From assembly GCA_030535355.1 (NCBI GenBank), contig JAUNIO010000002.1:8781-72780 (forward strand): a stretch of DNA of 64,000 nt, in the 5' to 3' direction. Position numbers and translations under genes: made by a program. Position 1 is the first letter of the stretch; the number at the start of each line of letters is the position of its first letter. The notes below the pieces were generated by a model, which saw only the letters and a list, made by a program, of their open reading frames with translations, made no database searches and had not been told where the DNA came from. The DNA comes from a bacterium (GTDB taxonomy: Bacteria > Vulcanimicrobiota > Xenobia > Xenobiales > Xenobiaceae). Positions 10,185 through 57,275 of this stretch are shown here, piece by piece.

Positions 10185-11531
10185 ATGAGAGTTGCTGCTA
10201 AAACAAACCTCAACAAAGACCAGGTTATCAAAATGGTCAAAGACGGTGGAGTAACCATGCTGCGCCTGCAATTCACCGATATTCTCGGCGGAGTCAAAAA
10301 CGTCGGCATTCCCGGGCATCACATTGAGCAAATTCTCGAGGAAGGCGTAATCTTCGATGGTTCCTCCATTGAAGGTTTTGTGCGCATCGAAGAATCTGAC
10401 ATGCGCCTCATGCCCGATCCTTCCACTTTTACTGTCCTGCCCTGGAAACCGGAAGCCCACAAAGAAGCGCGCCTAATCTGCGACGTCGTCTATCCCGATG
10501 GCACTCCCTTTCCCGGCGACCCGCGCACCTTCCTTAAACGCATGATTGCTAAGGCCAGCGAACAGGGGCTGGAAATGATGGCCGGTCCCGAAGCGGAATT
10601 TTTCCTCTTCGAACAGGACGCTCAGGGACAGCCCACCGTCAATACCCACGACACCGGCAGTTATTTCGACCTCACCCCTATTGATATTGGCGAAGAAACC
10701 CGCCGCGACATTATCGACAATTTAGAAAAAATGGGCTTTGAAGTGGAAGCCTCCCACCACGAATGCGGTCAGGCCCAGCACGAAATCGATTTCCGCTATG
10801 CCGATGCCCTGCACACCGCAGATAATGTAGTTACATTCAAGACCGTGGTTAAAACCATTGCCACCCAGCACGGTATGCACGCCACTTTCATGCCCAAGCC
10901 GCGTTTTGGTATCGCCGGTTCAGGTATGCACCTCAACCAGTCTCTCTTCTTTGACGACGAAAATATATTCTACGATCCCGACGATCCCCAGCAGCTCTCC
11001 GAATCCTGCCGTTTTTACATGGGTGGCCTAATCAAGCATGCCCGCGCTTTTACCGCGTTCACTAATCCCCTGGTCAACTCCTATAAGCGCCTTGTTCCCG
11101 GCTATGAAGCGCCGCTCTACGTGACCTGGGCGGAAAAGAACCGCAGCCCGATGATCCGCATCCCCGCCCAGCGCGGCAAAGGCACCCGCGTCGAAGTGCG
11201 CTCCCCGGACCCTTCCTGCAATCCCTATCTGGCCATCGGGCTCATGCTCTGCGCCGGTTTAGACGGTATAGATAACAATATCGACCCCGGCGATCCCGTC
11301 AACATTAATTTATACACCCTGACTCCCGAACAGCTGCGCGAGCACAGCATCGCGACTCTGCCAGGCAACCTCAAAGAAGCCCTGGAAGCTTTTGAACAGG
11401 ACGAAATGATGATGGAAGCCATAGGCCCGCACATCTGGACTCAGTTTAAAGCGGCTAAACTGCACGAATGGGAGGAGTACACCACCCAAGTACACCAGTG
11501 GGAGCTGGATCGCTATTTAGCCATGTACTAA
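10185..11531 (+). CDS. glnA: Glutamine synthetase, type I.
   Basis: 448 aa with GS beta-grasp and catalytic-domain motifs (DGSSIEGF, PKPRFGIAGSGMHLNQS, NPLVNSYKRLVPGYEAP, RSPDPSCNPYLA). Confidence 0.9.
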   Translation: MRVAAKTNLNKDQVIKMVKDGGVTMLRLQFTDILGGVKNVGIPGHHIEQILEEGVIFDGSSIEGFVRIEESDMRLMPDPSTFTVLPWKPEAHKEARLICDVVYPDGTPFPGDPRTFLKRMIAKASEQGLEMMAGPEAEFFLFEQDAQGQPTVNTHDTGSYFDLTPIDIGEETRRDIIDNLEKMGFEVEASHHECGQAQHEIDFRYADALHTADNVVTFKTVVKTIATQHGMHATFMPKPRFGIAGSGMHLNQSLFFDDENIFYDPDDPQQLSESCRFYMGGLIKHARAFTAFTNPLVNSYKRLVPGYEAPLYVTWAEKNRSPMIRIPAQRGKGTRVEVRSPDPSCNPYLAIGLMLCAGLDGIDNNIDPGDPVNINLYTLTPEQLREHSIATLPGNLKEALEAFEQDEMMMEAIGPHIWTQFKAAKLHEWEEYTTQVHQWELDRYLAMY

Positions 11532-11697
11532 AAGTTAGCCTCGGCAATATTGGCTATGCTTCTAGATAACGTAGAAATCGTTTTGTGGCGCTGTCTAGTT
11601 TCGCTTATGACAATACGCTTATTTCAGAACTGCCGCTGAGCTCGTTAATTCATTTAAGCGTCGTGCCACAGAATCTCGCCAAAGCAAAGAGCACAGT

Positions 11698-11880
11698 CCC
11701 GTTAAGTTAGCAATTAGCTAACTTAACGGGACTGTATGACTCCCCCTAAAGGATGTAATATCATTTAGTTAGCGATCAGCTAACTTGCGAAACTATCTGA
11801 CTCCCCCTAAAGGATGGGAGGGGGAGAAGTCGCGACTGCGACAGAGGGGGTGCCCACGACTGTTGGGAAATCGAGGTCTA
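11698..11880. repeat. Family-A palindromic MITE-like intergenic repeat. It includes a perfect 33-nt palindrome at 11698-11730 and a partial internal duplication.
   Basis: The core gactccccctaaaggatgggagggggagaagtcgcgactgcgacagaggg recurs in either orientation at 21383, 25606, 49108, 53706, 56709 and 56943. Confidence 0.8.
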
Positions 11881-11904
11881 GTGTGTGTCATGCTTCAGCT
11901 TATA

Positions 11905-11995
11905 AGCAGGCATAAACGTAACGATAATTGTATATGAGTCAACATTTCCAATGTCGTTGAGCCTTAAGTTAACGACATTGGCGAAGAGCGAAAAT
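11905..11995. repeat. Family-B palindromic repeat, the reverse complement of the copies at 56837 and 57188.
   Basis: ggcataaacgtaacgataattgtatatgagtcaacatttccaatgtcgttgagccttaa matches the reverse complement of 56841-56910 with few mismatches. Confidence 0.7.
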
Positions 11996-12149
11996 ACTCA
12001 TAACGCACGTGATATTAATTGCGCACCATTCTGCAGCCCAGCTTCGCTGGGCTTAATACTGCTAACTATGGTTAGCTTAGTTATTATGTGATAAAATACC
12101 CTTCGGTACAGAAAGCCCTAAACGATAGCTCTCAAAGGAAGAAACAAAA

Positions 12150-13055
12150 TTGGCTGAGCAGGATTTTCAGAACGATAACTTTATTATTGTCACCGGCATG
12201 TCAGGAGCGGGAAAAACTCTAGTCACCAAATGCTTGGAAGACCAGGGTTATTATTGCGTTGACAATATCCCGCCGGCGCTGCTGCTGAAATTCGCTCAGC
12301 TATGCAATTCCTCCAGCATTACCAAATTAGCTATCGCCATAGATGTGCGCAGCCACAATTTTTTCGCCGACATCGACCAGGCCATTGAAGAGCTGACCTT
12401 GGCGGGGTTTTCCCCCCAGATATGGTTTGTCGAAGCTAACCCAGAAGTTTTAGTGCGCCGCTTTGCCGCCAACCGCCGCCAGCACCCTCTGGCCAGCGAC
12501 GGCCGCGTAGTCAACGGCATAGAAGAAGAACAAAAACTGCTGACTGCCCTGCGCAGCCGGGCCAGTTACATTATCGACACCAGCAAACTAACTCCCCACC
12601 AGCTGCGCGGCACTATCGTCGAGCATTTCAATCAGGCTAGCTCCCAAAACAGTTTAGGCCAAGTTCACGTGCTCAGTTTTGGTTTTAAATATGGAGTGCC
12701 CCTAGACGCCGATCTGATTTTCGACTGCCGCTTCCTGCCCAATCCCTACTATATTCCCGAGCTAAAACCGCTCACCGGTGCTCATCCCCTGGTTTCTGAA
12801 TACGTTTTCAGTTTCGATGCTACCCAAAAGTTCGTAGACAAAATTATAGAGTTTTTGAGTTTCGTCATGCCTCTGTATCAGCATGAGGGTAAGAATCACG
12901 TCGTAGTTGGGTTTGGCTGCACAGGAGGACGCCACCGCTCCGCCGCTATTGCCGCAGAAAGCAGCCGCCGCCTCAGCGACGCCGGTTTTAAAGTCAGTTT
13001 AGAACATCGCGATATTACTAAAGATGACCGCGAAAACGACGACAAACACGCCTAA
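12150..13055 (+). CDS. rapZ: RNase adapter / nucleotide-binding protein RapZ (YvcJ family).
   Basis: It has a TTG start with an AAAGGAAG RBS, a P-loop (IVTGMSGAGKT) and YCVDNIPP. 301 aa. Confidence 0.85.
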   Translation: MAEQDFQNDNFIIVTGMSGAGKTLVTKCLEDQGYYCVDNIPPALLLKFAQLCNSSSITKLAIAIDVRSHNFFADIDQAIEELTLAGFSPQIWFVEANPEVLVRRFAANRRQHPLASDGRVVNGIEEEQKLLTALRSRASYIIDTSKLTPHQLRGTIVEHFNQASSQNSLGQVHVLSFGFKYGVPLDADLIFDCRFLPNPYYIPELKPLTGAHPLVSEYVFSFDATQKFVDKIIEFLSFVMPLYQHEGKNHVVVGFGCTGGRHRSAAIAAESSRRLSDAGFKVSLEHRDITKDDRENDDKHA

Positions 13056-14406
13056 AAAGAAAAAATCTCTCCCTCCCTCCAAGGCCAGTATTTGGCGGCC
13101 CGGTTTAGGCATTAAGCGCTGTTTTTTCGCTCTGGCTGCCGGGTTTATTTTCTTATGCTGCGGCATCATTCTGCTTTTCAGCACCACCTGGGCACTATGC
13201 GTGGAAGAAAGCTTGACAAACGCCAGCTTAAATTGGCTGGGGTGGCACATTTCCAGCTTTAGCGTCGATATTTTTCTACTGGTTTTAGGGCTTGTATGTC
13301 TGGGTTGGGGACTGTGGCGAGCGGCTTCGTTCCTTTATAACGCGTCTCAGGCCCACCCCAGCTCTAGCATGATGGATGCCCTGGCCTTAGGGCGGCGGCG
13401 CAATTACGGTCTGAAGATCGTGGCCTTAGGCGGCGGTACTGGCTTATCTACACTGCTGCGCGGCCTCAAAAAATACACCTCCAATATTACCGCCGTAGTT
13501 TCCGTTTCCGACAACGGCGGCAGTTCGGGACGGCTTTCCAAGGAACTGGCGATGCTGCCCCCCGGCGACATCCGCAACTGCCTGACCGCCCTGGCCGACG
13601 ACGAAGACCTGCTGACCGAGCTGTTCCGCTTCCGCTTCGATAAAGGGGAAAGCCAAAGTTTAGGAGGCCACGCTTTCGGAAACCTTTTTATAGCCGCCCT
13701 GAACCAGATTTACGGCGACTTTGAAGTAGCTTTAAAAAAAGGCAGCGCCCTGCTGGCCATCCGCGGCCGGGTTCTTCCCGCCACATTAACAGCTACGGTG
13801 CTGTGCGCGAAGATGCGCGATGGGCGGATTATTAAAGGAGAAAGCGAGATTCCCAGCGCTCAGGGAGAGATCACCGATGTATTTTTAGAACCTGGCAGCT
13901 GCCAGGCACCCCCCGAGGTGATTAAAGCTATCGAAGAAGCCGACGCCATCATTTTGGGGCCGGGAAGCTTATACACCAGTGTCATGCCCAACCTGCTGAT
14001 CAAAAATATCGTCAAAGCGCTGGAGCGCACCGAAGCCCCCATTATTTATGTCTGCAACGTGATGACTCAAAACGGGGAGACCGACGGCTATACGGCAGCC
14101 GACCATTTGCAGGCCATCTATCACCATCTCAAAAAGCCCCTGGTCGATTACGTAATCGCCAATGCCAGCGCCCCCAACAAAAAACTGCTGGAAAAATACG
14201 CTAAAGAAGGTTCAAAGCCGGTGGTTCTGGATTACGAGCGCCTGCAAAGCATGGGAGTGCATCCAGTTTATGCCAAATTATCCAAAGATGAGCAGCTGGT
14301 GCGCCACGATCCCGACTATTTAGCTGAAGCGATTATGGATCTGCTGGGAGAGGTCAAATACCGCGACGGCTCAGAAGGCGCGGACAGCATGAGATCGCCG
14401 AATTAA
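13024..14406 (+). CDS. YvcK / CofD-like (UPF0052, gluconeogenesis-factor family) protein with an unusual ~130-aa N-terminal extension carrying two predicted TM helices.
   Basis: The core starts KIVALGGGTGLSTLLRGLK. It overlaps rapZ by 32 nt, the conserved rapZ-yvcK arrangement. The N-terminus has hydrophobic segments (FFALAAGFIFLCCGIILLF, IFLLVLGLVCLGWGLW). Confidence 0.8.
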   Translation: MTAKTTTNTPKKKKSLPPSKASIWRPGLGIKRCFFALAAGFIFLCCGIILLFSTTWALCVEESLTNASLNWLGWHISSFSVDIFLLVLGLVCLGWGLWRAASFLYNASQAHPSSSMMDALALGRRRNYGLKIVALGGGTGLSTLLRGLKKYTSNITAVVSVSDNGGSSGRLSKELAMLPPGDIRNCLTALADDEDLLTELFRFRFDKGESQSLGGHAFGNLFIAALNQIYGDFEVALKKGSALLAIRGRVLPATLTATVLCAKMRDGRIIKGESEIPSAQGEITDVFLEPGSCQAPPEVIKAIEEADAIILGPGSLYTSVMPNLLIKNIVKALERTEAPIIYVCNVMTQNGETDGYTAADHLQAIYHHLKKPLVDYVIANASAPNKKLLEKYAKEGSKPVVLDYERLQSMGVHPVYAKLSKDEQLVRHDPDYLAEAIMDLLGEVKYRDGSEGADSMRSPN

Positions 14407-14771
14407 TTTATTTCTTTTACAAATGGTTTACAAAATGTTAAAAATCAACTCAACCTACAGGTTGACTAATTGTTCATTCAGAGATATTATTAAACCGCAG
14501 TCAACAGTCAATGCAGTTAGTCTACTCTAGATTGCAGAACGCTATTCTGGCTGCCCTGAATGGAATAATCTGCAAAGATTAAACATAGAAGGTCTTAAAA
14601 AAAATTAAACGCATTCAAAACTGTTGGTAGCAGTAAAAAATGCGTTCAATATCTCAGAAGTGCTATCACTCCTAAAGCTTACAACTGGTATGATAGCACC
14701 TCTGAGAGGCTATGTCAAGCGTTAATGAGACGTATGGCTAGCTTACATATACTCTCAGAGGAGGCAATAAT

Positions 14772-15446
14772 ATGTCCAAAATACGGGCAACAATCGCAGA
14801 TGGCTGCGATTCAAGTATTATTCCTGGTCTTCAGTACGATGGATTATTAGGTATCCCGCTTATCAAAAGGCCAGACAAAATCATCATTCCGAAAAACATC
14901 GTACCATTTTCCAAACGCAATTACACAGCCGATCTCGACGTAGCCATCGGATTCTACGAGATGGACGAAAAATTTGCTGATTTGCTCTGCCATCCGGAAG
15001 CATATGTCGAAGATTTAAGTCGCTTTTCAGCGATAATCTCTCCCGACTGTTCTCTATACCTGCCCAACTCACTGGGCAGCCACATTACTAACATATATAG
15101 AAGCCGGCTTATCGGCTGCTTCTTTCAGGCCAAACGCCTGTACGTCATACCTCAAATCCGCTGGGGCAAAGAAACTACTTATACGGCAGGGGCATTGCAA
15201 GAAAAAGCTGCTTTCCTCGGCGTTGAAAAACACAGCATTGTAGCGATCGGCACTTACGGCTGCTGTCAGCACAGAGAAGAAAAGCGCCATCTCAAAGCTG
15301 GGTTAAGTGCTATGCTAGATACGGTACAGCCAGATACCGTGTTGGTGTATGGGCCTATGCCTCCGGCAATTTTCGGCGAGTTCCTCCAAAGAACAAACTT
15401 TGTTCCTTACGACAACTGGTTAAAACGCGTAAAGGGAGGACAATAG
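14772..15446 (+). CDS. Uncharacterised protein of 224 aa, paralog A of the island pair.
   Basis: It is homologous over its whole length to the 16545..17210 product (IPxxxRPxKIxIP, VIPxxRW, YTAxxL, FVxYxxW). An RBS (AGAGGAGG) is present and it lies in a low-GC context. Confidence 0.6.
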   Translation: MSKIRATIADGCDSSIIPGLQYDGLLGIPLIKRPDKIIIPKNIVPFSKRNYTADLDVAIGFYEMDEKFADLLCHPEAYVEDLSRFSAIISPDCSLYLPNSLGSHITNIYRSRLIGCFFQAKRLYVIPQIRWGKETTYTAGALQEKAAFLGVEKHSIVAIGTYGCCQHREEKRHLKAGLSAMLDTVQPDTVLVYGPMPPAIFGEFLQRTNFVPYDNWLKRVKGGQ

Positions 15447-15447
15447 T

Positions 15448-15957
15448 ATGGGTAGCGGCAGCAGTTATTCCTATTCTGGAACCAGCGGCGGGTCGCAGCC
15501 CTACGCTGAAACCTACGGGGTAGTTCCCGAAGCGCTCAACAAAGACAAGAAAGACCCCGACATTTACGATAAAGCAGAAGGGTATTTCAAGAATCCGACA
15601 GCAGTATCTCTAGCTTCCGCTATAGATGGTAACAGAGTGACTTTTAATAATCTCAGCGCCCATGGAAAATACACTTATGTTATGGATAAGAACGGCAATA
15701 TTATCTTTGGTAAACGTTGCAATCCTAATGACATAAGCAAACGTTCTCCTCATCCTACGCTCATTGGAGGTAAAAATCCACAAGTGCAATGCGCAGGTAT
15801 TATCGCGATGAGCAAAGGGAAAATCACCAATATAGATAATATGAGCGGACATTTTAAGCCGCATCATAGATCTTTAAATAAGGTTTATGACGCTCTTCAT
15901 AAACTGCATGAAAGCAATCCTAACATCTTCTCTACACGTTTTCAATGGAGGGAATAG
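15448..15957 (+). CDS. Candidate toxin of 169 aa with a Gly/Ser-rich N-terminus and a C-terminal HNH/EndoVII-like motif (sGH-x3-HH-x3-N-x7-H).
   Basis: It starts 1 nt after paralog A with a GGGAGGA RBS. The motif is MSGHFKPHHRSLNKVYDALHKLH. It is immediately followed by a small acidic ORF. Confidence 0.5.
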   Translation: MGSGSSYSYSGTSGGSQPYAETYGVVPEALNKDKKDPDIYDKAEGYFKNPTAVSLASAIDGNRVTFNNLSAHGKYTYVMDKNGNIIFGKRCNPNDISKRSPHPTLIGGKNPQVQCAGIIAMSKGKITNIDNMSGHFKPHHRSLNKVYDALHKLHESNPNIFSTRFQWRE

Positions 15958-15959
15958 GT

Positions 15960-16418
15960 ATGGAAGAAGAGATATTAAGTTATGAAACCGCTTCTTTATT
16001 TAATCGTTCTTTCGAAGAAGAGATCACAGATGCTGAAGAGACAGCATTACTAGATCGCGCAAACGCTTTAATTAATACGTTTGGCTGGAAAAAGGTGTTT
16101 AACTCTTGGAATAACTACCTTCACCACCAATGCCTAACTCCAGAATCTGCGATCAATTTCGCCAATTGGTTCTGGTTCTATGGAGGTCATGAGCACCCAA
16201 TCCCCAATCCTTATCATTTTATAGCGTATTTCTATTATCGTATTGACTATGCAATTCAGAAATATGACATTTCGGATATCTTGGATAGTCTCGCTACCAG
16301 CATCTTGCCCAAAGCAGGCCATCGCGAAGCGGATTTATATCTAAATCCCTACTACATGCCGGAAAGTGACCCCCAAATACGGGCAGAAGTTGAAAAGCTC
16401 AAAAAACAAAACAGCTAA
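15960..16418 (+). CDS. Candidate immunity or partner protein (~153 aa, acidic, Trp/Tyr-rich).
   Basis: The ATG lies 2 nt after the preceding stop, with a GGAGGGAAT RBS. It has no recognisable domain. The ORF track gives an in-frame upstream start at 15945 that would overlap the toxin stop. Confidence 0.45.
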   Translation: MEEEILSYETASLFNRSFEEEITDAEETALLDRANALINTFGWKKVFNSWNNYLHHQCLTPESAINFANWFWFYGGHEHPIPNPYHFIAYFYYRIDYAIQKYDISDILDSLATSILPKAGHREADLYLNPYYMPESDPQIRAEVEKLKKQNS

Positions 16419-16544
16419 CCACACCAGACTACGCCAGAAGAATTCTCACTGCTAAAGCTTCAAAGCATCTCAATGAGTACTTCTGGCTTCATTTTCACTG
16501 CACAGCACTTGTTTGATAATAGCTATTGTCAGGAGAGAAAACTC

Positions 16545-17210
16545 ATGCCGAAACAACAATACCGCGACGACGGCTGTAACCCAGAAATACTTGCTGGGGC
16601 AAAATTTGCAGGCACTCTAGAAATACCAGTCGTAGAACGGCCTAGCAAAATCGTTATACCAGATACGCCAGTTCCTTTTTCACAGCACGCACAATGCCAA
16701 AATCAAAACGCTTTCTTAGTCATCTCCGAACCTGATGTCAATTTCTCTGATATTCTGCGCAATCCAGAACCTTATTGCCAAATCGCTAACAATTACGCAG
16801 GCATAATAACTTTAGAACCCGCTCTATTCACTGGAGCTAAGCTAGCTGAACAAATCGCTGTAACCCAGCGCAACCGCACTTTGGCACATTGTTTTCAAAG
16901 GCACTGCGTTGAAGTTATCCCACATCTGCGCTGGAAAGACAAAAATAGCTATACAGCGACCGTTTTGCCAGATAAAATCGCCTTAATAGGTCTGCCCCTA
17001 AACAGCATTGTGGCCTTGGAAACTAATTCATGTCTTAATAGCGACATGGACAAACTGCGTTTACAGTTAGGCCTACAAGCCGTTCTGGAAGAACTGCAGC
17101 CGCAAATTATTTTAATATTCGGAGCTATGCCTGACGAAGTATTCTCCAATTTTCAGCATGATACCGTATTTGTCAATTATAATCCATGGCCACCAACAAC
17201 ATCTTTATAA
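16545..17210 (+). CDS. Uncharacterised protein, paralog B of 14772..15446.
   Basis: It is homologous to paralog A. The start at 16545 is preferred (RBS AGGAGAG). The upstream region is homologous to the region upstream of paralog A. Confidence 0.6.
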   Translation: MPKQQYRDDGCNPEILAGAKFAGTLEIPVVERPSKIVIPDTPVPFSQHAQCQNQNAFLVISEPDVNFSDILRNPEPYCQIANNYAGIITLEPALFTGAKLAEQIAVTQRNRTLAHCFQRHCVEVIPHLRWKDKNSYTATVLPDKIALIGLPLNSIVALETNSCLNSDMDKLRLQLGLQAVLEELQPQIILIFGAMPDEVFSNFQHDTVFVNYNPWPPTTSL

Positions 17211-17324
17211 ATCGGCAGCAAACTACCAGCGGCTTACATCAACCTTCTGGTTGATAATATTCGTTACTTGGTGTAAACTACTTCACGTTAGCGGATGGTA
17301 AAACAACAATGGGGAGGTGAGCAC

Positions 17325-17699
17325 ATGCTGACAAGTTTAGGCAAGTTTTTGAGAAAACTGCGCATAGACAGAGGAGAGATACTACGCGACATGGCGGACA
17401 AACTTGGCGTTACAGTATCATTTCTCTCTGCTGTTGAAAATGGCAAAAAAAGAATGCCCTCATTATGGAATAACAGAATCTGTGAGCTATATAGCCTGGA
17501 TATACATCAGCAAGAATCTTTTACAAAAGCGATAGCTGAAACAGAAGATACCATTGAAATGAATTTAACTTCAGCCAGCGCCAACAGACGGGAATTAGCT
17601 ATTGCTTTCGCGCGCTCTTTTCACAATATCGATACTGAGCAGATAACTGCCATTCATAAAATACTACAGAAAAGGAAGCAAAGCAATGACCAGCATTAA
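17325..17699 (+). CDS. XRE-family helix-turn-helix transcriptional regulator.
   Basis: The N-terminal HTH (LRKLRIDRGEILRDMADKLGVTVSFLSAVENGKK) and a GGAGGTGA RBS support the 17325 start. Confidence 0.7.
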   Translation: MLTSLGKFLRKLRIDRGEILRDMADKLGVTVSFLSAVENGKKRMPSLWNNRICELYSLDIHQQESFTKAIAETEDTIEMNLTSASANRRELAIAFARSFHNIDTEQITAIHKILQKRKQSNDQH

Positions 17700-18213
17700 A
17701 GCTAACCCTATATCTCGGATAGAAATTAGAAAAATAGCCTATATTATACGTGCCATAGCCGATACGCTCAACAGTCCTTATTTTCCAATAATATATTTTA
17801 TTGAGCATACTTTACCAAGAGATATGCCAGAATTCAATTACGAAATTGTTAATCTACAAGATATGCCTCACAATCATGCTGAAACACATCCTGACCAAAA
17901 CCTAATACAAATTAGGGAAGATGTATATCTTAGGGCTATAAAGGGCTGTGGTAGGGATCGCTTTACCCTTGCTCATGAACTAGGCCATTTATTATTACAT
18001 AGAGCCAACTGCATTTCATTATGCAGATTAGCTCCTAATAAAAGATTAAAACCATACGAAAACCCGGAATGGCAAGCCAATGCTTTTGCAGGGGAGCTAC
18101 TTATGCCGATAGATATAATCAAAGATATGAGTATCTATCAAATCTGTCATCAATGCGGCGTTTCTGCAGATGCCGCCCGGTGTCAGCTCAGCTTACTTAA
18201 AAATGCCAGATGA
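17686..18213 (+). CDS. ImmA/IrrE-family (COG2856) zinc metallopeptidase.
   Basis: It has the HEXXH motif (LAHELGHLLLH) in the typical context and overlaps the XRE gene by 14 nt, the classic XRE-ImmA pair. Confidence 0.75.
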   Translation: MTSIKANPISRIEIRKIAYIIRAIADTLNSPYFPIIYFIEHTLPRDMPEFNYEIVNLQDMPHNHAETHPDQNLIQIREDVYLRAIKGCGRDRFTLAHELGHLLLHRANCISLCRLAPNKRLKPYENPEWQANAFAGELLMPIDIIKDMSIYQICHQCGVSADAARCQLSLLKNAR

Positions 18214-18268
18214 CCATTGAGCACTCTGCACTTCGTCCCCCCCCCTTGTTTAGCAAACACTAAATCCG

Positions 18269-19624
18269 CTAGACCTCAGAATCTCCCAGCTCCCCATACA
18301 TGCGCTCCAGCATCTCCTCAGCCCGGGCACTGCCCTTCTCCGCCGCCTGACTCAGCAAATGCAGCGCCGCTTCAGGATCTGCGGGAATGCCCAAGCCGCC
18401 CTGATAAAACTCTGCCAGAGAAATCATAGCCTCAGTATGGCCTGCCGCCACCGCCCGTTTCAGGAAACCTACACAGCGCTTGACATTTTGCTCCACGCCC
18501 TCTCCGCGGAAATACATAAACGCCAAAATATACATAGCCGCCGGATGGCCTTCGTCAGCGGCACAGCGCAGATAGTGCACCGCTTTGGGCAAATCCTGCT
18601 CTGTATTATGCCCTAAACGATACATCTGCCCCACAGCGAACTGAGCGTCCACATGGTCGCGATCTGCAGCCATCTGCGCATAACGCCAGGCTTCTTGAGG
18701 ATCGCGGGGGATACCATCACCAGAATCGTACAATTTGCTCAGCATGTACATGGCCTGGGGCCAGCCCATATCGGCGTCATCCTGCAGAAGCTGCACAGCC
18801 TGCGCCACATCTTTGGGCACAATTCCCCCCTGCAGATATAAAGACGCCAAAAAAGTCGATGCTCCCACCACGCCCTGAGAAGCCGCGTCGCAGATTCTGG
18901 AAATATTATTGTATAGATCTTCTGGCGGACAGTTATTCATCAGCGCACAGGCGGCATCTATGAATTTGCGTTTTACCGGTGAAGCTACCATATTGCCAAT
19001 AGCTTTCCCTAAATGCTGCAGCTGCGCCACAGTAGGTATATCTTGCCATTCCGCCGTTTCCGCAAATTCCTGCAGCGATTCATTCGGGCTGCGGCGCAGA
19101 GATTCTATAAGCTCGCGGCGCAGCTGAGGCTCCACAGGCCAGCCGTATTTATCTATGCCGTTCATCAGCACCGAATCGGAAACATCGCAGCCATGCCCGG
19201 CAGCTAAACACAGATACTCGCCGCCTTTCACCGCATCTTTGGGCACACCTATGCCGTAAGAATACATCTGCCCTAAACAGCCGTAAGCGTAGGGATTGCC
19301 CAGTTCCGCAGAGCGGTGCATTAGGCGCAAAGCTTCGGGACATTCCCCCATGAAGAGATTGTCTGCCAGCAGCAGCAGAGCGTACAGGACCATAGCGTCG
19401 GCATGGCCGCTTTCCGCAGCCTGCTTCACATAGCGCCGGCACAGCTCTAAATTCACTTCACAGCCCACTCCGCTCAGGCACATTTTCGCTACGCAATAAG
19501 CCGCATCGGCATGCCCATTATCGGCGGCGCGCCTAAAAGATTTAAACGCCAAAGCCTCATCTTCAGCCAGAGCGCCGGAAACGTCCTCTGAACCAGTATT
19601 GTTCGAAGTATCTGCCGCCATCAT
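18269..19624 (-). CDS. Sel1-repeat (TPR-like) protein.
   Basis: 451 aa with ~36-aa repeats recurring more than 8 times, each with G-x-G-V/I-x-x-D and A-x-x-W/Y-x-x-A-A-x-x-G. Confidence 0.8.
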   Translation of the reverse strand: MMAADTSNNTGSEDVSGALAEDEALAFKSFRRAADNGHADAAYCVAKMCLSGVGCEVNLELCRRYVKQAAESGHADAMVLYALLLLADNLFMGECPEALRLMHRSAELGNPYAYGCLGQMYSYGIGVPKDAVKGGEYLCLAAGHGCDVSDSVLMNGIDKYGWPVEPQLRRELIESLRRSPNESLQEFAETAEWQDIPTVAQLQHLGKAIGNMVASPVKRKFIDAACALMNNCPPEDLYNNISRICDAASQGVVGASTFLASLYLQGGIVPKDVAQAVQLLQDDADMGWPQAMYMLSKLYDSGDGIPRDPQEAWRYAQMAADRDHVDAQFAVGQMYRLGHNTEQDLPKAVHYLRCAADEGHPAAMYILAFMYFRGEGVEQNVKRCVGFLKRAVAAGHTEAMISLAEFYQGGLGIPADPEAALHLLSQAAEKGSARAEEMLERMYGELGDSEV

Positions 19625-19828
19625 CGCTGACCATGTCCAAGAAATTTTATGTTTGTTTCTCTGTCGGCGATTTACTACCTTTGCAGCATATTTTACCGCA
19701 AACGCTTACACGCGGATATCCAAAGAGGCCAATGCCATCTCTATCTAAACTAAATGACAATAAGCCAACAAGGATTTAAATATTCAACATTGAACCAAAG
19801 CTAACCACATTTTTAGAGGTTTTTTGTA

Positions 19829-21283
19829 ATGCTAATCGACCTTACCGTTAAACCCGAAGCCCTGCAGCGCACCATCAAGCGCGCCAAAGAAAAAAACATC
19901 CGCATCCCTACCTTCAAAATGATGCGCGATCCTAAGCTCATCCCCGCTAAAGTCAAGGAAGAGCTGAAAAATGTAGGCCTTTGGGATGTCAACCCCGTCA
20001 ACCTATACCGCATCAACTGGCACAACGAGCCCGTGGAAAAAGGCGGAACTTATGGCGGCGTCAATTTCATCGAATTCCCCAGCGAATTAACCGGCGTACC
20101 CTGCAAAATCGTAGGCTTAGCGGGCAAATGGTTCCCCACCGGAGCCCACAAAGTAGGAGCCGCTTTCGGCTGCTTAGTCCCTCGCCTGGTCACCGGCCAA
20201 TTCGACCCCACCTGCCAGAAAGCCGTCTGGCCTTCCACCGGCAACTACTGCCGCGGCGGTGCCTACGACTCTGCCCTGCTGGGCTGCCAGTCCATCGCTA
20301 TTCTCCCCGAGGAGATGAGCGCCGAACGCTTCAACTGGCTTAAGACCGTAGCTGGCGAGATCATCGCCACCCCCGGCTGCGAGAGCAACGTCAAAGAAAT
20401 CTTCGATAAGTGCTGGGAACTGCGCAAATCCGGTCAGAATTTGGTTATCTTCAACCAGTTCGAAGAGTTCGGCAACTACCTGTGGCACTACAACGTCACC
20501 GGCCCTGCCATGGAAGAAGCCGTTAAAGCCGTAGGCGGCACTTACCGCGGTATGGTCTCCGCCACAGGCTCTGCCGGCACCATAGCCGCCGGCGACTACA
20601 TGAAGATGCTGCATCCCACCTCCAAGATCGCCGCTTCCGAAGCGGTGCAGTGCCCCACTCTGCTGATGAACGGTTTCGGCGGCCACCGCATTGAAGGCAT
20701 TGGCGACAAGCATGTGCCCTGGGTGCACAACGTTAAAAACACCGATATGGTCATCGCCATCGACGACGAAGCGCCCATGACTCTGCTGCGCCTGCTCAAC
20801 GAGCCCGCCGGCAAAGAATTCCTAGCTTCCCTGGGACTCAAAAAAGAATTGGTCGAGAAACTCGATTGGCTGGGTATAAGCTCGATCTCCAACCTGCTTT
20901 CCGCTATCAAGATGGCCAAATACTACGAGCTGCGCTCCGATGACGTCATTGTCACCATGCTCACCGACTCCGCCGCCATGTACCAGAGCCGTCTGGCCGA
21001 ACAGACCGCCGCTAAAGGCGCTTTTGGAGCTACCGAAGCTGCGGTGGCCTATGCCCGCTACTTCGCCGGCTGCACCACCGATACCATGGCCGAGCTCACC
21101 TATGCCGACCGCAAACGGGTCCACAACCTCAAGTATTACACTTGGGTTGAGCAGCAGGGCAAGACCTACGACGAGATTCAGCGCCAGTGGTACGATCCCG
21201 AGTATTGGGAAGAGCTGCATCAGGGTACTGACGCTATCGACAAGCTCATCGACGAGTTCAACGCGGCTGTCGAGAATGCATAA
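19829..21283 (+). CDS. PLP-dependent enzyme of the tryptophan-synthase-beta / cysteine-synthase (fold type II) superfamily, with a C-terminal extension.
   Basis: 484 aa with a candidate PLP lysine (PTGAHKVGAAFG) and a Gly-rich loop (SATGSAGTIAAG). The specific reaction is not assignable from sequence. Confidence 0.65.
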   Translation: MLIDLTVKPEALQRTIKRAKEKNIRIPTFKMMRDPKLIPAKVKEELKNVGLWDVNPVNLYRINWHNEPVEKGGTYGGVNFIEFPSELTGVPCKIVGLAGKWFPTGAHKVGAAFGCLVPRLVTGQFDPTCQKAVWPSTGNYCRGGAYDSALLGCQSIAILPEEMSAERFNWLKTVAGEIIATPGCESNVKEIFDKCWELRKSGQNLVIFNQFEEFGNYLWHYNVTGPAMEEAVKAVGGTYRGMVSATGSAGTIAAGDYMKMLHPTSKIAASEAVQCPTLLMNGFGGHRIEGIGDKHVPWVHNVKNTDMVIAIDDEAPMTLLRLLNEPAGKEFLASLGLKKELVEKLDWLGISSISNLLSAIKMAKYYELRSDDVIVTMLTDSAAMYQSRLAEQTAAKGAFGATEAAVAYARYFAGCTTDTMAELTYADRKRVHNLKYYTWVEQQGKTYDEIQRQWYDPEYWEELHQGTDAIDKLIDEFNAAVENA

Positions 21284-21382
21284 AGCCTAAGGAAGCGCTG
21301 ATTAATAGCATTACGCTTAATTACCAATATTAGCGCTTCCTTCTAAACTGTTAAGCGTGCATTGACATTGGCACATTACAAC

Positions 21383-21450
21383 TCCCCCTAGACGGAGCAG
21401 GGGGAGAAGTCGCGAATGCGACAGAGGGAGTCCGTTAAACTGATGGAAAA
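21383..21450. repeat. Partial family-A repeat copy.
   Basis: ctccccctagacggagcagggggagaagtcgcgaatgcgacagaggg matches the family-A core. Confidence 0.7.
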
Positions 21451-21528
21451 ATCTAACAGTTACTTGACAACTAAATGAGCTTAATTGCATGTGCTAACGT
21501 ATTGCTAAATGCTTCCAAGAGGATCGCT

Positions 21529-21594: not shown

Positions 21595-21627
21595 AAGCCC
21601 TTTCTCAGCGAAAGGGCTTATTTAATT
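21595..21627 (+). terminator. Rho-independent terminator-like hairpin (aagccctttctcagcgaaagggctt followed by ATTTAATT), then a 20-nt tandem direct repeat (ttaattcggg[g/a]aacacagct, twice).
   Basis: A perfect 9-bp stem with a T-rich tail. It is 310 nt downstream of the PLP-enzyme gene, so it may terminate a small transcript. Confidence 0.5.
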
Positions 21628-21713
21628 CGGGGAACACAGCTTTAATTCGGGAAACACAGCTGACTTACATTGCTGTTCTTTTCATAATAAGCCAAAATAT
21701 AGTATAATAAAAA

Positions 21714-23204
21714 ATGTTGCTAACCCAGCTACATTTTATCGAGGAGCCCACTAGGTTGGAAAACAGCGCCGCAATTGATCTAACCAAGCAAGAAAGCGAA
21801 AACCTTGAGCCGCATCTGGTCCCTTTTAAAAATCAGCGTCTAAAGCTCGGCGATTCTCTGCGCAAATGCCATCAGCTCTTCCCGCTCACCTGGAGCGGCC
21901 TGCTCACGCTGGCTGCCGGCGTAATAGGATGGTGCACCTTAGGCAGCCGCCACCGCGACTTGGTTATTTCAGCGGCATCTTTCATTTTAGGCTTGCTGGT
22001 GATCGTGCTTATGGTCTGCGTGCTGATCAATGCCCTGCGCCTGCACCTGCGCCTGCGCCGTGAAGAGCAGGATATAGGAACCTTAAAGCTGGAAACAGGC
22101 TATCCCCGCACCACCGACTATCAGCTGGAAATAGGTTACTTTCCCTTTACCGAAATTACCTGGAGCTGGACCTATCCAGTCCAAACCGACGTAGTGACTA
22201 CAAGTACATTCAAAACAATAACTGAAACCGTCACCGCTCAGCAGCGCTGCCAAGCCGATCACATCACCCGTCATTTTGTAGTTAAAGATATTATCGGCCT
22301 GGCGCGCATGGAATGGGAACGCACATTTCCCACCGCAGTAACCGTAATACCCAACCAAGAAAATTTCAGCGCTAACCAGGTTCTGCCCAGCGTCTCCGAT
22401 GGAGACGAAGATTCCAATCCTTACGGCGCTCCCAAAGGCGACCGCATAGAAATGCGCAAATACTCCAACGGAGATTCCTCGCGGGACATTATTTGGAAAA
22501 TCTATGCCCGCACCCGAAAACTCATGGTACGCATTCCCGAACGCGCTATCACCGCCCAGCCGCGTTCCTGCGCGTATCTAATCGGCGCGCACGGCGACAG
22601 CTCCAGCGCCAGTTTAGCCCGCACTATTTTGGAACGCCACATGCTGGGCGACAACTGGGGCTTTGGCGCAGACGGTACCCCCGGAGTGATTACCAATTTG
22701 GGACAGGCCATTCAGGCTATCGCTCAATCGGGCAATTACGCTTTAATGTCTGCCCACGAAGCCAAAATTACCAATCTCTCCGCCTTTCTCCGCGAAGCCG
22801 AAGCTATAGGATACAATAATTGCCTTATCTTTATTCCCTCACGGCTGGCCCCTCCCCCTCCGCCTATATTATCGCGCTGGCAGCGCTTATTTAATTCTCA
22901 AGAAGGCACCTGGCCTGACTGGGCCAAACCGGCCCGTCAAGCCCTCAATAGCTGCCACATGACAATCACCTGGCTCATGGGCGTAGAAAAAGACCCGCGC
23001 AAGCTGGCCTCAGCTACAGAGAAAGCGCCGCTTCCGCCCTGGCAGGAAAAACTCCAGCGATACGCTTTAGCGCCCAAAGACGCTGAAAGCGATACCTCTG
23101 TGGAAGTCGTTAAAGCTATAATAGGCGAAAGCACGCCCGTTTGGCTCTACGCCAGCGACAGCTGCCGCTTCCTAGTCTATAACAATATCTCCGAAGCACA
23201 ATAG
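21714..23204 (+). CDS. DUF58-family protein, the MoxR-partner class.
   Basis: It has N-terminal TM helices and the DUF58 signature (EMRKYSNGDSSRDIIWKIYARTRKLMVRIPE). Confidence 0.7.
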   Translation: MLLTQLHFIEEPTRLENSAAIDLTKQESENLEPHLVPFKNQRLKLGDSLRKCHQLFPLTWSGLLTLAAGVIGWCTLGSRHRDLVISAASFILGLLVIVLMVCVLINALRLHLRLRREEQDIGTLKLETGYPRTTDYQLEIGYFPFTEITWSWTYPVQTDVVTTSTFKTITETVTAQQRCQADHITRHFVVKDIIGLARMEWERTFPTAVTVIPNQENFSANQVLPSVSDGDEDSNPYGAPKGDRIEMRKYSNGDSSRDIIWKIYARTRKLMVRIPERAITAQPRSCAYLIGAHGDSSSASLARTILERHMLGDNWGFGADGTPGVITNLGQAIQAIAQSGNYALMSAHEAKITNLSAFLREAEAIGYNNCLIFIPSRLAPPPPPILSRWQRLFNSQEGTWPDWAKPARQALNSCHMTITWLMGVEKDPRKLASATEKAPLPPWQEKLQRYALAPKDAESDTSVEVVKAIIGESTPVWLYASDSCRFLVYNNISEAQ

Positions 23205-25590: not shown

Positions 25591-25605
25591 TATTAGCTAA
25601 AGGGT

Positions 25606-25728
25606 CAGTACCGTTAAGTCAGCAATTAGCTAACTTGCTAATATCATTTAGTTAGCGATCAGCTAACTTGCGAAACTATCTGACTCCCCCTAAAGAATGG
25701 GAGGGGGTTGCGTCTTAACCAAATGACA
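25606..25728. mobile_element. Family-A MITE-like element of 123 nt flanked by a 12-nt direct repeat (tagctaaagggt at 25594-25605 and 25729-25740).
   Basis: The ends are imperfectly inverted (cgttaagtc ... gacttaacc-like). The internal gttagc-gatc-agctaac and ctccccc/gggggag palindromes are shared with the other copies. Confidence 0.7.
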
Positions 25729-25738
25729 TAGCTAAAGG

Positions 25739-28963: not shown

Positions 28964-29124
28964 ATTAAAATTTATTTTCATTTATCCAGCAACGCTTTGC
29001 CTAAGCTGCACCTGCCGTTCCTCGGCCTACCCTGCTGAAAGGAGACCAAGGCTCACTTATTCAGCCTTCACCGTGCCCAGCAGCCGATGGGTTAAAGCGC
29101 TGCTGGATTTAATTAGGAGTTCTC

Positions 29125-29787: not shown

Positions 29788-29827
29788 TTGGAGGCAGCGC
29801 AGATGGCGAAAATTGGAGGCAGCGCAG

Positions 29828-34234: not shown

Positions 34235-35403
34235 TGCGTATGAAAAGAAGTCCCGCTTCCGTTTGGCCCATTTTGCTCTGCCTTAGCCTCTGCCTTAGCG
34301 TTAGCTCTCCTATTTTCGCGCAGGACCCCGGCGAAGTGCGCGAAGACCTGCGCGAAAAGAAGGGAGAGCTGCGCTACCAGCAAAGCCGCTTAGACACGCT
34401 CAACGAGCGCGAACGCGATTTATCAAGACAGCTCAGCGATTCCCAATACGACCTTCAGGAAAGCCGCACCGCGTTAAACAACACCGTGGCCCGTTTGGAA
34501 AGTGCCCAGGCCCGCTATGAAGATATTCAGACCCGGCTCAGCGTGGCCACCAAAAAATACCGCAGCAGCCAAGCCCTGCTGGGGCAGCGCCTGCGCGATA
34601 TTTACATGCAGGGCGATATGGGCTATCTGTTGGTCCTTCTGGGATCGCAGAGCTTTACAGATTTTCTGGATTATGCTCACTACATCGCTATTATCGTTAA
34701 CCGCGACTACGAACTGCTAGATGAAGTGCGCCAGCTGAGAGCCGAGCTGCACAGCCAGGCCCAAGCCGCCCAGGAAGCGCTGATCGAGATGCGCCAGCTG
34801 CGCGACGATCAGGAAGCCCGCGTCAGCCGTCTGAGCAAAATTGAGCAGCGCCGCGCCGCTCTGCTCAGCGACGTGCAGAGCCAGCGCGCAAAAGTGGCTC
34901 AATACGTGACAGAACTGGAAGGCAGCACTCAAGAGTTAGAAAACAAGCTGCACAGAACGCTGGTCAAACGCCAGTCGCACGCCCGGCCGCATATCCCTCA
35001 AAAGAAGCGCACCTGGGGAACTGGCCGTTTTATAACCCCGGCAGAAGGTCCCATAACTTCTCCCTACGGGTACCGCGTGCACCCCATATTTGGGACTCTG
35101 CGCTTTCACTCGGGAATCGATATTGGAGCTTATTACGGTTCCAGCATTTTAGCCGCTGACAGCGGCATAGTAATCGAAGCCGGCTGGATAGGCGGTTACG
35201 GCAATACAGTCATGATCGATCACGGCGGAGGCTACAGCACGCTCTACGGCCACTGTTCCCAGCTTTACGTGCGCAACGGGCAAATGGTCCGTCAGGGAGA
35301 GCCTATCGCCGCTGTGGGCAGTACCGGCAATTCTACAGGGCCGCACCTGCATTTTGAGGTGCGCATCAACGGCGATCCCGTCGATCCCTTAGGGTTTATT
35401 TAG
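34234..35403 (+). CDS. Coiled-coil M23 (LytM) metallopeptidase, the EnvC/PcsB/RipC-like FtsEX partner. The catalytic residues are intact.
   Basis: It has a signal peptide, a long coiled coil and C-terminal HSGIDI...YGHCS...HLHFEV. Confidence 0.8.
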   Translation: MRMKRSPASVWPILLCLSLCLSVSSPIFAQDPGEVREDLREKKGELRYQQSRLDTLNERERDLSRQLSDSQYDLQESRTALNNTVARLESAQARYEDIQTRLSVATKKYRSSQALLGQRLRDIYMQGDMGYLLVLLGSQSFTDFLDYAHYIAIIVNRDYELLDEVRQLRAELHSQAQAAQEALIEMRQLRDDQEARVSRLSKIEQRRAALLSDVQSQRAKVAQYVTELEGSTQELENKLHRTLVKRQSHARPHIPQKKRTWGTGRFITPAEGPITSPYGYRVHPIFGTLRFHSGIDIGAYYGSSILAADSGIVIEAGWIGGYGNTVMIDHGGGYSTLYGHCSQLYVRNGQMVRQGEPIAAVGSTGNSTGPHLHFEVRINGDPVDPLGFI

Positions 35404-35497
35404 CCTTAACTAAATAACATTGCTCAAATCATCACTATAGGTTTATAATGCAAAGGTATCGGGGACCTAAGCATTCCCCGTGCAGTGAGGAGACAAC

Positions 35498-37124: not shown

Positions 37125-37191
37125 ACACAGACGATAACTGCCTGCGGGCGGCTGCTAAGGCAGCGCTTGCAGGCTCAGCTTGGGTTAGAAT

Positions 37192-48573: not shown

Positions 48574-49110
48574 ATGGAGATGACCACCGATAGGCTCATT
48601 CTGCGGCATTGGCAAGAATCCGACGCCGCAGATTTATTCAAATATGCCCAAGACCCGCGAATCGGGTATATGGCGGGATTTCCCGCGCACACTTGCGTAG
48701 AGGAAAGTTTGGATATTATACGCAGAATTCTGTCAAACCCCGGTCTCTACGCAGTTTGTCTGAAAACAGACAAGCTGCCTATAGGCTGTATAGGCATGCA
48801 CCCCACTAAGCAAAAGCTCTGCAAGATAGGGAAAGAAATTGAGATAGCTTTTTGGCTGGGAGTCCCGTTTTGGGGGCAGGCCATCATCCCAGAAGCTATA
48901 CGCCGTTTCCAAAAGCACATCTTTGAAGATTTGGGATTTGAGGCTATATGGTGCTCCTACTGCGAGGGCAACGAGAATTCCAAAAGATGTATGGAAAAGT
49001 GCGGTTTCGTATACCATCACACCGAAGAGAATACGCCATACATTTTTTTGCACGAAAACCGCACAGAGCATTTTACCAGACTGACAAAAGATGAGTGGCT
49101 AAAGCTTTAA
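48574..49110 (+). CDS. GNAT-family N-acetyltransferase.
   Basis: 178 aa with an acetyl-CoA binding region (IAFWLGVPFWGQAIIPEA). Confidence 0.7.
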   Translation: MEMTTDRLILRHWQESDAADLFKYAQDPRIGYMAGFPAHTCVEESLDIIRRILSNPGLYAVCLKTDKLPIGCIGMHPTKQKLCKIGKEIEIAFWLGVPFWGQAIIPEAIRRFQKHIFEDLGFEAIWCSYCEGNENSKRCMEKCGFVYHHTEENTPYIFLHENRTEHFTRLTKDEWLKL

Positions 49111-49160
49111 TATCATTGAGTTAGCGATCAGCTAACTTGCGAACTATCTGACTCCCCCTA
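49108..49160. repeat. Truncated family-A repeat copy between convergent genes. The adjacent hairpin at 49168-49189 overlaps the GT2 stop codon.
   Basis: taatatcattgagttagcgatcagctaacttgcgaactatctgactccccctaaa matches family A. Confidence 0.7.
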
Positions 49161-49180
49161 AAAAACGGTTAAATAAGCGG

Positions 49181-53705: not shown

Positions 53706-53795
53706 AACTCCCCCAGCAGTCTTGCCCCCTCTGTCGCAGCCGCAACTTCTCCCCCTCCCATCCTTTAGGGGGAGTCAGATAGTTTCACAGGTTAG
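53706..53795. repeat. Family-A repeat copy, reverse orientation.
   Basis: ccctctgtcgcagccgcaacttctccccctcccatcctttagggggagtcagatagtttc matches family A. Confidence 0.75.
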
Positions 53796-53957
53796 ATAGA
53801 TAATTAACAATTAAACAATATTCACATCCAGCAATATAAAATGAATATTCTACACAGGAGCATTCCTGGCTAATGCTGAGCATATTAAATTTAATTCAAT
53901 ATTAAATAATACAAACAGTTCTTCATTTTTTATCATTTATCATTGTATAAGCAAATG

Positions 53958-56637: not shown

Positions 56638-56699
56638 ATATGCTTGTTGCTACGTTTTGCAACACGTTATTGTTTGCGTTATAGCTAATTGAATGGTTA

Positions 56700-57275
56700 A
56701 GTTAAAATCCAATTCCCCAACAGTCTTGGGCACCCCCCTCTGTCGCATTCGCGACTTCTCCCCCTCCCATCCTTTAGGGGGAGTCAGATAGTTTCGCAGG
56801 TTAGCTGAGCCTTAACTAAATGATATTACCTTTAGGGGCAATGTCATTTAGTTAAGGCTCAATGACATTGGGAATGTTGACTCATATACAACTATCGCCA
56901 CGTTTATGCCCGGGTACAAGCTAGCCTATAACATAAGCTAAACCTCGATTCCCCAACAGTCTTGGGCACCCCCTCTGTCGCATTCGCGACTTCTCCCCCT
57001 CCCATCCTTTAGGGGGAGTCAGACAGTTTCGCAGGTTAGCTGATCGCTAACTAAATGATATTACCTTTAGGGGGGAGTCATAATGTACCAATGTTAAAGC
57101 ATATTTATCAGTTAATAGTAAGCGCCAAAACTACGTTTGACGCTTACCTTTTTCCCTGGAATGTTTACAACTTCCTTTATAGAATTAGCAATGCCGTTAA
57201 CTTAAGGATCAACGGCATTGCTAATGTTAACTTATATAATACAACTATCGCCACGTATATACAAGAGTGTTAAAT
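56700..57275. repeat. Dense array of intergenic repeats: two family-A copies (about 56709-56838 and 56943-57076) interleaved with two family-B copies (56837-56910 and 57188-57263).
   Basis: The 747-nt gap between divergent genes has no convincing ORF. The copies match the 11.7 kb locus in reverse orientation. Confidence 0.8.

Follow-up and report, generated by a model that had tools for sequence, protein, structure and literature searches.

In the genome of an uncultured bacterium of the Xenobiaceae (assembly GCA_030535355.1), the genes glnA and rapZ are separated by a 618-nt gap, of which 287 nt (11694-11980) are occupied by a non-coding repeat element and the other ~330 nt are unique. The sequence analysed, referred to as the window, is the whole 64,000-nucleotide stretch of contig JAUNIO010000002.1 between positions 8,781 and 72,780, and coordinates are counted from its first letter. 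Nine element loci lie inside the window and two outside it, making eleven within ~70 kb. An initial annotation of the window had described the repeats as two palindromic families, A and B, resembling MITEs (miniature inverted-repeat transposable elements), and had taken the glnA-rapZ gap to be almost entirely repeat, an overestimate given the figures above. The two families are parts of one non-coding composite miniature transposon of ~225 nt, in which family A is the left end and core and family B the right end.

One composite element and its copies

The unit emerges from a self-comparison of the window, in which 11755-11980 and 56839-57064 are 88% complementary across 226 nt (pair I1). Because this match links both families, A and B are adjoining segments of one unit, and the proposed division into two families gives way to one composite element and its deletion derivatives. 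In the same comparison the family A core is found at 11731/11792, 21399, 25639, 49108, 53725 (-), 56734 (-) and 56969 (-), and the hairpin of family B at 11931, 56839 (-) and 57189 (-). All positions given in the initial annotation carry the repeat (11698/11756, 21383, 25606, 49108, 53706, 56709 and 56943 for A; 11905, 56837 and 57188 for B), in both orientations as it had reported. A third full copy, with identical A-spacer-B order and flanks dissimilar to the window, is present on an unrelated metagenome contig (L003).

The canonical unit measures ~225 nt (alignment A3) and a long variant 287 nt, both below 500 bp. The left terminal repeat, TAATATCATTTAGTTA, is adjoined by a small hairpin, H1, with stems AGTTAGC/GCTAACT. 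The core contains hairpin H2 (CTCCCCC, a 12-nt loop TAAAGGATGGGA, GGGGGAG) and hairpin H3 (GTCGC-GAMT-GCGAC), followed by a G-rich hairpin, H4. On the 3' side of the core stand a variable hairpin of ~35 nt and then a conserved box, CATAAACGT..CGATAATTGYATATGAGTCAACATT; the right terminal repeat pairs with its own internal complement (CAATGTCGTT...AACGACATTG). Six-frame translation of the element gives no open reading frame (ORF) of more than 50 aa, and stops in most frames. No transposase domain was detected in the scanned ORFs of the window, which comprised most, not all, of those of at least 100 aa, compared with NCBIfam and/or Pfam.

Copies were enumerated with a profile built on the full copies (nhmmer), to which the model positions below refer. 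Besides full copies there are the 287-nt long variant, an internally deleted copy, several fragments and a solo end, laid out as follows, with the putative target-site duplication of the first locus:

11684..11693, no strand: putative 10-bp target-site duplication, left copy GCAAAGAGCA, 8/10 against the right copy
11694..11980, + strand: long variant, 287 nt, consisting of an outer variant left end (11694-11755) and the canonical 225-nt element (11756-11980)
11700-11755 and 11755-11984: profile matches within the long variant, to positions 8-62 and 1-230, respectively (nhmmer)
11981..11990, no strand: putative 10-bp target-site duplication, right copy GCGAAGAGCG, 8/10 against the left copy
21354..21511, + strand: old, diverged internal fragment; profile match 21374-21511, positions 39-176
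25606..25731, + strand: internally deleted copy with both ends kept; profile match 25639-25707, positions 2-70
35395..35422, - strand: solo right-end terminal repeat remnant (CAATGTTATTTAGTTAAGGCTAAA), with the terminal motif at 35407-35422
49108..49167, + strand: left-end fragment, profile positions 2-62, preceded by GGCTAAAGCTT
53710..53829, - strand: degenerate left end and core to model position ~115; profile match 53806-53710, positions 12-115
56660..56828, - strand: inner part of an older long-variant copy, O; profile match 56829-56660, positions 1-169
56839..57063, - strand: canonical full copy, 225 nt; profile match 57064-56836, positions 1-229
57064..57115, - strand: degenerate outer left portion of copy O, with the left copy of the duplicated CCCCTAAAGG
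57188..57268, - strand: right-end-only fragment, profile positions 150-227

The termini of the long variant in the glnA-rapZ gap are CAGTCCCGTTAAGTTA and, read as the reverse complement, CAATGTCGTTAACTTA. At its outer edge the initial annotation had noted a perfect 33-nt palindrome that looked like two fused element ends. An inverted repeat is indeed present, as two arms of 18 nt (11694-11711 and 11717-11734) separated by 5 nt, and it spans 11694-11734; the idea of a fusion holds only loosely, the palindrome being the outer left terminus of the 287-nt variant, paired with an internal complement of its own. Self-folding of this sort recurs at the right end of all copies and at the termini of Escherichia coli IS4.

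The copy at 25606..25731 consists of a 33-nt outer left end, an inner left end reaching model position 70 and the final ~25 nt of the right end; from 25639 it is 99% identical to 11756-11824 across 69 nt, a degree of sequence identity that suggests recent activity. The diverged fragment at 21354..21511 retains the H2 stem with a different loop and an intact H3, and the one at 53710..53829 lies downstream of pilT. The remnant at 35395-35422 (CAATGTTATTTAGTTAAGG...), absent from the initial annotation, sits in the 44-nt gap between an M23 peptidase gene and an S41 peptidase gene. In the cluster at 56.6-57.3 kb the canonical copy 56839-57063 interrupts copy O, the older of the two, within its CCCCTAAAGG loop and splits it into 57064-57115 and 56660-56828; 57188-57268 is a separate right-end fragment, in whose terminal hairpin a T-A pair is replaced by C-G, a compensated change. 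The copies, scattered among housekeeping genes, are essentially intergenic, as had been stated, apart from the one at 49108: the first three bases of its left terminus (TAA, 49108-49110) are the stop codon of a GNAT-like ORF (48574-49110), and the insertion therefore sets the C-terminus of that ORF.

Termini, flanking duplications and target preference

The terminal motif YAATRYCRTTWASTTA occurs in the window at 9 sites with at most one mismatch, against 0.06 expected, and none of 100 shuffles reached 9; every site is an element end or the solo remnant at 35407-35422. The termini form imperfect inverted repeats, with TAATATCATTTAGTTA and CAATGTCATTTAGTTA agreeing at 14/16 positions in the 57-kb copy and the two ends of the metagenome copy L009 at 13/17.

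A duplication of ~10 bp together with ends starting NAAT led to the IS4 family being considered. The copy of IS4 in E. coli K-12 (NC_000913) has TAATGCCGATCAGTTAAGGATCAGT as its left end and TAATGCCAGTCAGTTAAGCAACTGA as the other, and is flanked by a 12-bp duplication. All 128,000 25-mers of the window, from both strands, were compared with the IS4 left end; only 8 of them agree with it at 17 or more of the 25 positions, and all 8 are outward-facing element termini (17-19/25). The best is CAATGCCGTTAACTTAAGGATCAAC at 57189, the terminus of the 57188..57268 fragment, with 19/25 matches to the IS4 left inverted repeat. By BLASTN the element interiors are unrelated to the interior of E. coli IS4, the termini alone matching. 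The right inverted repeat of IS4 (the 'IS4_a' end, GCCAGTCAGTT/AACTGACTGGC) folds on a neighbouring internal complement, as does the right end of the element. Judged by their sequences, the element termini are homologous to the inverted repeats of E. coli IS4.

For the IS4 subgroup, the published end consensus is -AATR--------WTW----, in which the first base is relaxed; target duplications measure 10-13 bp (De Palmenaer, Siguier & Mahillon 2008, Table 1; PMC2266710). The ends TAATATCATTTAGTTA, CAATGTCGTTAACTTA, CAATGCCGTTAACTTA and CAATACCGTTAACTTA fit this consensus at the specified positions, and the outer variant end CAGTCCCGTTAAGTTA departs from it at positions 3 and 5. An IS231-type origin was set aside in favour of the IS4 subgroup on the basis of the same table.

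Direct repeats of 9-10 bp stand immediately outside the termini in four of the five complete copies. The nested 57-kb copy is bounded by a perfect 10-bp duplication, CCCCTAAAGG / CCCCTAAAGG, at 57064-57073 and 56829-56838 (10/10); the 25.6-kb copy has (G)CTAAAGGGT on either side, at 25596-25605 and 25731/25732-25740 (9-10/10); and L009 has ACCTGTACGC / ACCTTTACAC (8/10), the same score as the pair around the glnA-rapZ copy. By our calculation, the probability that 8 or more of 10 positions match by chance, the offset being fixed, is ~4e-4 per pair.

CTAAAGG, the putative preferred target, adjoins most element junctions. Left ends are preceded by CCCCCTAAAGGATG, CCCCTAAAGG (twice), GCTAAAGGGT and GGCTAAAGCTT, and right ends are followed by CCCCTAAAGG, CTAAAGGATGG (L013), GGCTAAAGGT (L017), CTAAAGGGT and AAGGATGGGA (L003). 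This motif also forms the loop of hairpin H2 within the element. The presence of the target in this loop would explain why copies pile into copies and yield mosaic-looking arrays. Marked target specificity has been described for some members of the IS4 subgroup (PMC2266710).

Relatives, classification and competing readings

The initial annotation had taken confinement of the repeats to this region as refuting its finding; such confinement is at odds with the two copies outside the window and with related copies in unrelated metagenome gene contexts. Short-read contigs from this strain match the window at 100% identity and break off within copies. One (L001) corresponds to 11953-21315, its left end falling within the 11.9-kb copy and its right end ~40-60 nt upstream of the 21.4-kb fragment. 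Of two others, from Logan SRR24915812 and SRR24915802, L011 runs 5982 nt past the left window edge, its first 59 nt being a new copy at about -5.9 kb, and L017 runs 299 nt past the right edge, its first 163 nt being a new copy (64137-64299), flanked by GGCTAAAGGT.

Homologous copies with unrelated flanks were found at no fewer than six other metagenome loci. A search of protein catalogues with the translated repeat returned twelve clusters of 51-96-aa ORFs (P0001-P0014; ENA metagenome gene calls), which are spurious translations of the element. The contigs behind them hold full copies (L003, L004-6 and L009) or right-part copies (L007/8 and L010) next to unrelated genes; from their names (STEW19-1, SHIW14-1 and XIEF21-1), they presumably derive from ruminant gut studies. 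The exact 26-mer of the core has no match in viral contigs, the element has no BLASTN match in plasmids and phages, and the stem-loop pattern gave a single match in JGI metagenomes, an unrelated perfect hairpin. Since the core 26-mer is also without a match in 185,579 species-representative genomes, and a RapZ-based locus search of that collection returned no relative, the genome and its lineage are missing from it.

RapZ homologues form a tight clade at 87%, 80% and 76% identity and then fall to ~55%, which makes the host lineage a deep-branching one. In the 76% relative (L014), glnA and rapZ are 143 nt apart and the element is absent. The 87% relative has two tandem right-part copies in the same spacer, in an arrangement unlike that of the window. 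The rapZ-proximal ~105 nt, with a TGnTAAAAT-like -10 box, aligns across relatives, and the insertions would therefore lie upstream of the likely rapZ promoter.

MITEs are typically shorter than 500 bp, with terminal inverted repeats of ~4-30 bp and, in younger copies, flanking direct repeats (PMC10969869). The length, terminal repeats, duplications and ORF-free interior of the element agree with this structural definition, and its ends are of IS4-subgroup type. The initial annotation's view of the repeats as MITE-like, and in part truncated or nested, is thus upheld by the terminal inverted repeats, the 9-10-bp duplications, the nested insertion and the homology to IS4 ends. In light of the IS4-like ends, the direct repeats, the nesting, the deletion derivatives and solo ends, the many loci and the element-free orthologous spacer, the repeats very probably constitute an IS4-type MITE family, most likely mobilized in trans by an IS4-family transposase encoded outside the window. 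The family is well defined, previously uncatalogued and ordinary in kind.

In the proposed pathway, an IS4-family DDE transposase supplied from elsewhere in the genome would bind the terminal repeats and excise the element by cut-and-paste. Re-insertion would take place over a staggered 10-bp cut, about one helical turn, with a preference for CTAAAGG-like sites. The target in the element's own H2 loop would direct some insertions into older copies, and such self-insertion would build up arrays of mosaic, tandem and nested form, as seen at 56.6-57.3 kb and upstream of rapZ. The 'A-only' and 'B-only' fragments would be what remains after subsequent deletions.

Several observations sit less easily with this pathway. 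Two of the four flanking duplications are imperfect (8/10), and the full copy L003, which abuts another partial copy, has none. The 'empty' spacer of L014 aligns with that of the window only over its first 12 nt and the promoter-proximal ~105 nt, and is too diverged to serve as a clean pre-insertion site. The copies examined in the source genome all lie within a ~70-kb stretch, and neither an autonomous partner nor a transposase was seen in the available sequence. Finally, the core is better conserved than the ends, which is not predicted by simple selfish transposition and is unusual for a MITE. Among five full copies of different origin, identity over the core (A3 columns 43-118, equal to 11797-11872 of the window) is 90%, 58 of the 76 columns being invariant, and neither H2 nor its 12-nt loop varies in 5 independent full copies; the terminal repeats of the same five are 67-78% identical. 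Such conservation could reflect a selected internal function, recent horizontal spread with mutational hot spots at the ends, or a role of the hairpin-presented target.

The first of these possibilities can be put in a stronger form, in which a selected structured module of ~75 nt, H2-H3-H4, is carried by the MITE and distributed near housekeeping genes in a lineage of probable ruminant-gut origin. This is unlikely; if selected, the module may act as a small RNA, as a site for protein binding or as a hairpin presenting the transposase's CTAAAGG target.

An element retained wholly for a function at the RNA level, as a multi-copy structured non-coding RNA or cis-regulatory RNA (small RNA, attenuator, or mRNA stabilizer or terminator), is a distinctly improbable reading. 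The element does fold into a chain of hairpins, on either strand and as RNA or DNA, beyond shuffled controls (z = -3.2, -3.4 and -4.2). In the hairpin of the right end, 92% of cells are paired across 12 copies, both sides are changed in 4 of the 10 pairs, and none of 500 shuffles reaches the observed covariation score; H1, H3, H4 and H6 show isolated compensated changes. In favour of an RNA module are this stability on both strands, the conserved 76-column core with its invariant H2 and 12-nt loop, and a weak trend, on our reading, for copies to be co-oriented with the neighbouring gene (~10 versus 2). Compensation in hairpins is, however, equally expected from recognition by DNA or protein. 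Moreover, no match in the whole window reached the gathering score in Rfam 15, with the E-value mode returning microRNA/snoRNA noise at 17-19 bits, and a promoter and terminator scan of the rapZ gap found nothing beyond shuffles, the terminal palindrome itself excepted. Both orientations and truncation at arbitrary points also speak against an RNA module, and terminal repeats, target duplications and nesting are signatures of DNA transposition.

A resemblance to repetitive extragenic palindromic (REP) sequences, REP doublets forming hairpins (REPINs) or bacterial interspersed mosaic elements (BIMEs) was also weighed. On this account the repeats would be short hairpin units spread on single-stranded DNA by a REP-associated tyrosine transposase (RAYT), an IS200/IS605-like enzyme. 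Intergenic, hairpin-rich, modular-looking repeats in both orientations, with compensatory changes at 4/10 pairs of the terminal hairpin, would suit such an origin, but a 225-nt unit with inverted IS4-homologous termini would not, and the copies have 9-10-bp flanking direct repeats, whereas single-strand Y1 transposition (IS200/IS605, RAYT) is not known to make any of this kind. No RAYT or Y1 transposase domain is present in the scanned ORFs of the window, and a conserved GTAG-type tetranucleotide at the hairpin foot was not noticed on reading the copies, no dedicated search for it having been made. A REP-like origin is accordingly very improbable. Least probable of all is local segmental duplication or recombination debris limited to the neighbourhood, which the clustering of all copies examined in the genome within ~70 kb would favour, but which is at odds with the different flanking genes at every locus, the terminal repeats and short duplications at the edges of copies, the occurrence of homologous elements in unrelated metagenome contexts (L003, L004, L007, L009 and L010) and same-strain short-read contigs that break in copies. 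IS200/IS605-type elements (palindrome-associated transposable elements, PATE), IS110 bridge-RNA-like elements and integron attC sites were rejected in view of the inverted repeats at the termini, the duplications of 10 bp and the homology of the ends to IS4. All of these rival readings are much less likely than an IS4-type MITE.

Neighbouring features and comparison with known systems

The window encodes a hopanoid set (HpnA, HpnG-like, HpnI and HpnN) and the rapZ-yvcK pair, and GC skew is negative in all 2-kb bins of 1-64000, despite genes lying mostly on the + strand. Beyond the rapZ region, 14400-18250 is a low-GC island (41-44% versus ~52%) with two DUF4417 genes and an HTH_XRE/Peptidase_M78 pair. 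It is missing in the 87%-RapZ relative (L012), in which a GT8 glycosyltransferase lies between yvcK and the Sel1 gene, and it resembles a strain-variable island of mobile or defence type. Near the 21.4-kb fragment, a direct repeat of ~21 nt (AATTCGGGGAACACAGCTTT / AATTCGGGAAACACAGCT) is found at 21622-21663, past a terminator-like hairpin and upstream of an ORF at 21714-23204.

At 7411-7895 a 231-nt tandem unit (91% identity, 254-nt spacing) spans the start of an adhesin-like ORF (7537-9465), its first copy beginning 5' of the first start codon. Two TPR-rich tandem paralogues, ~73-76% identical in nucleotide sequence and spaced by ~2985 nt, occupy 26876-31951. Within this region a perfect 25-nt tandem duplication (AATTGGAGGCAGCGCAGATGGCGAA, twice; 29786-29835) falls at the junction of ORFs 29125-29787 and 29771-31951, and may be frameshifting, splitting or joining the two. 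Next to the solo terminal repeat, 35448-38892 holds two tandem S41 C-terminal processing peptidases.

For the organism, the elements account for the breaking of its short-read assemblies every 6-10 kb, and they explain inflated intergenic spacers such as that of glnA-rapZ, spurious short 'proteins' in catalogues and one supplied stop codon. The family is evidence of IS4-type transposition, active now or until recently, in an uncultured lineage with a RapZ only ~55% identical to that of any named relative. No new kind of mechanism is revealed, and the family offers a concise example of a MITE whose sequence includes its preferred target, hence its self-nesting; it could also serve as a strain-typing marker.

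Among known systems, the REP sequences and BIMEs of enterobacteria and the REPINs of Pseudomonas resemble the element in their mosaic-looking intergenic arrays of palindromes. Their units are 20-40 nt long, are not known to have terminal inverted repeats or target duplications and are linked to RAYTs, in contrast to the 225 nt, terminal repeats and 9-10-bp duplications found here. The MIC231 and other IS231-derived cassettes of the Bacillus cereus group are non-autonomous IS4-family derivatives that keep only the ends. The element is likewise a non-autonomous IS4-family derivative; unlike it, MIC231 has CAT ends of the IS231 subgroup, 10-12-bp duplications and passenger genes, where the element has IS4-subgroup ends and no coding cargo.

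E. coli IS4 itself is similar in its ends, CAATGCCGTTAACTTAAGGATCAAC of the element matching the IS4 left end TAATGCCGATCAGTTAAGGATCAGT at 19/25 positions and both fitting the subgroup consensus. The duplications are also alike (10 bp for the element, 10-13 bp for the subgroup and 12 bp for the K-12 copy, about one helical turn), and in both cases the ends fold on an adjacent internal complement and target preference is marked. IS4 differs in its length of 1426 bp, the element having 225-287 nt, an unrelated interior and no transposase gene, in a host that is uncultured, deep-branching and non-proteobacterial.

The closest company is that of other prokaryotic MITEs, such as QMITE of Coxiella, the Correia elements of Neisseria and MITEAba12 (PMC10969869), which are comparable in size, carry terminal and direct repeats and are free of ORFs. 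Like the present family, they are intergenic, form stable stem-loops and are presumed to be mobilized in trans by a related insertion sequence. The element departs from them in that its core is G+C-rich, not AT-rich, and is conserved above the termini, and in that its preferred target lies in its own hairpin loop, leading to self-nesting.

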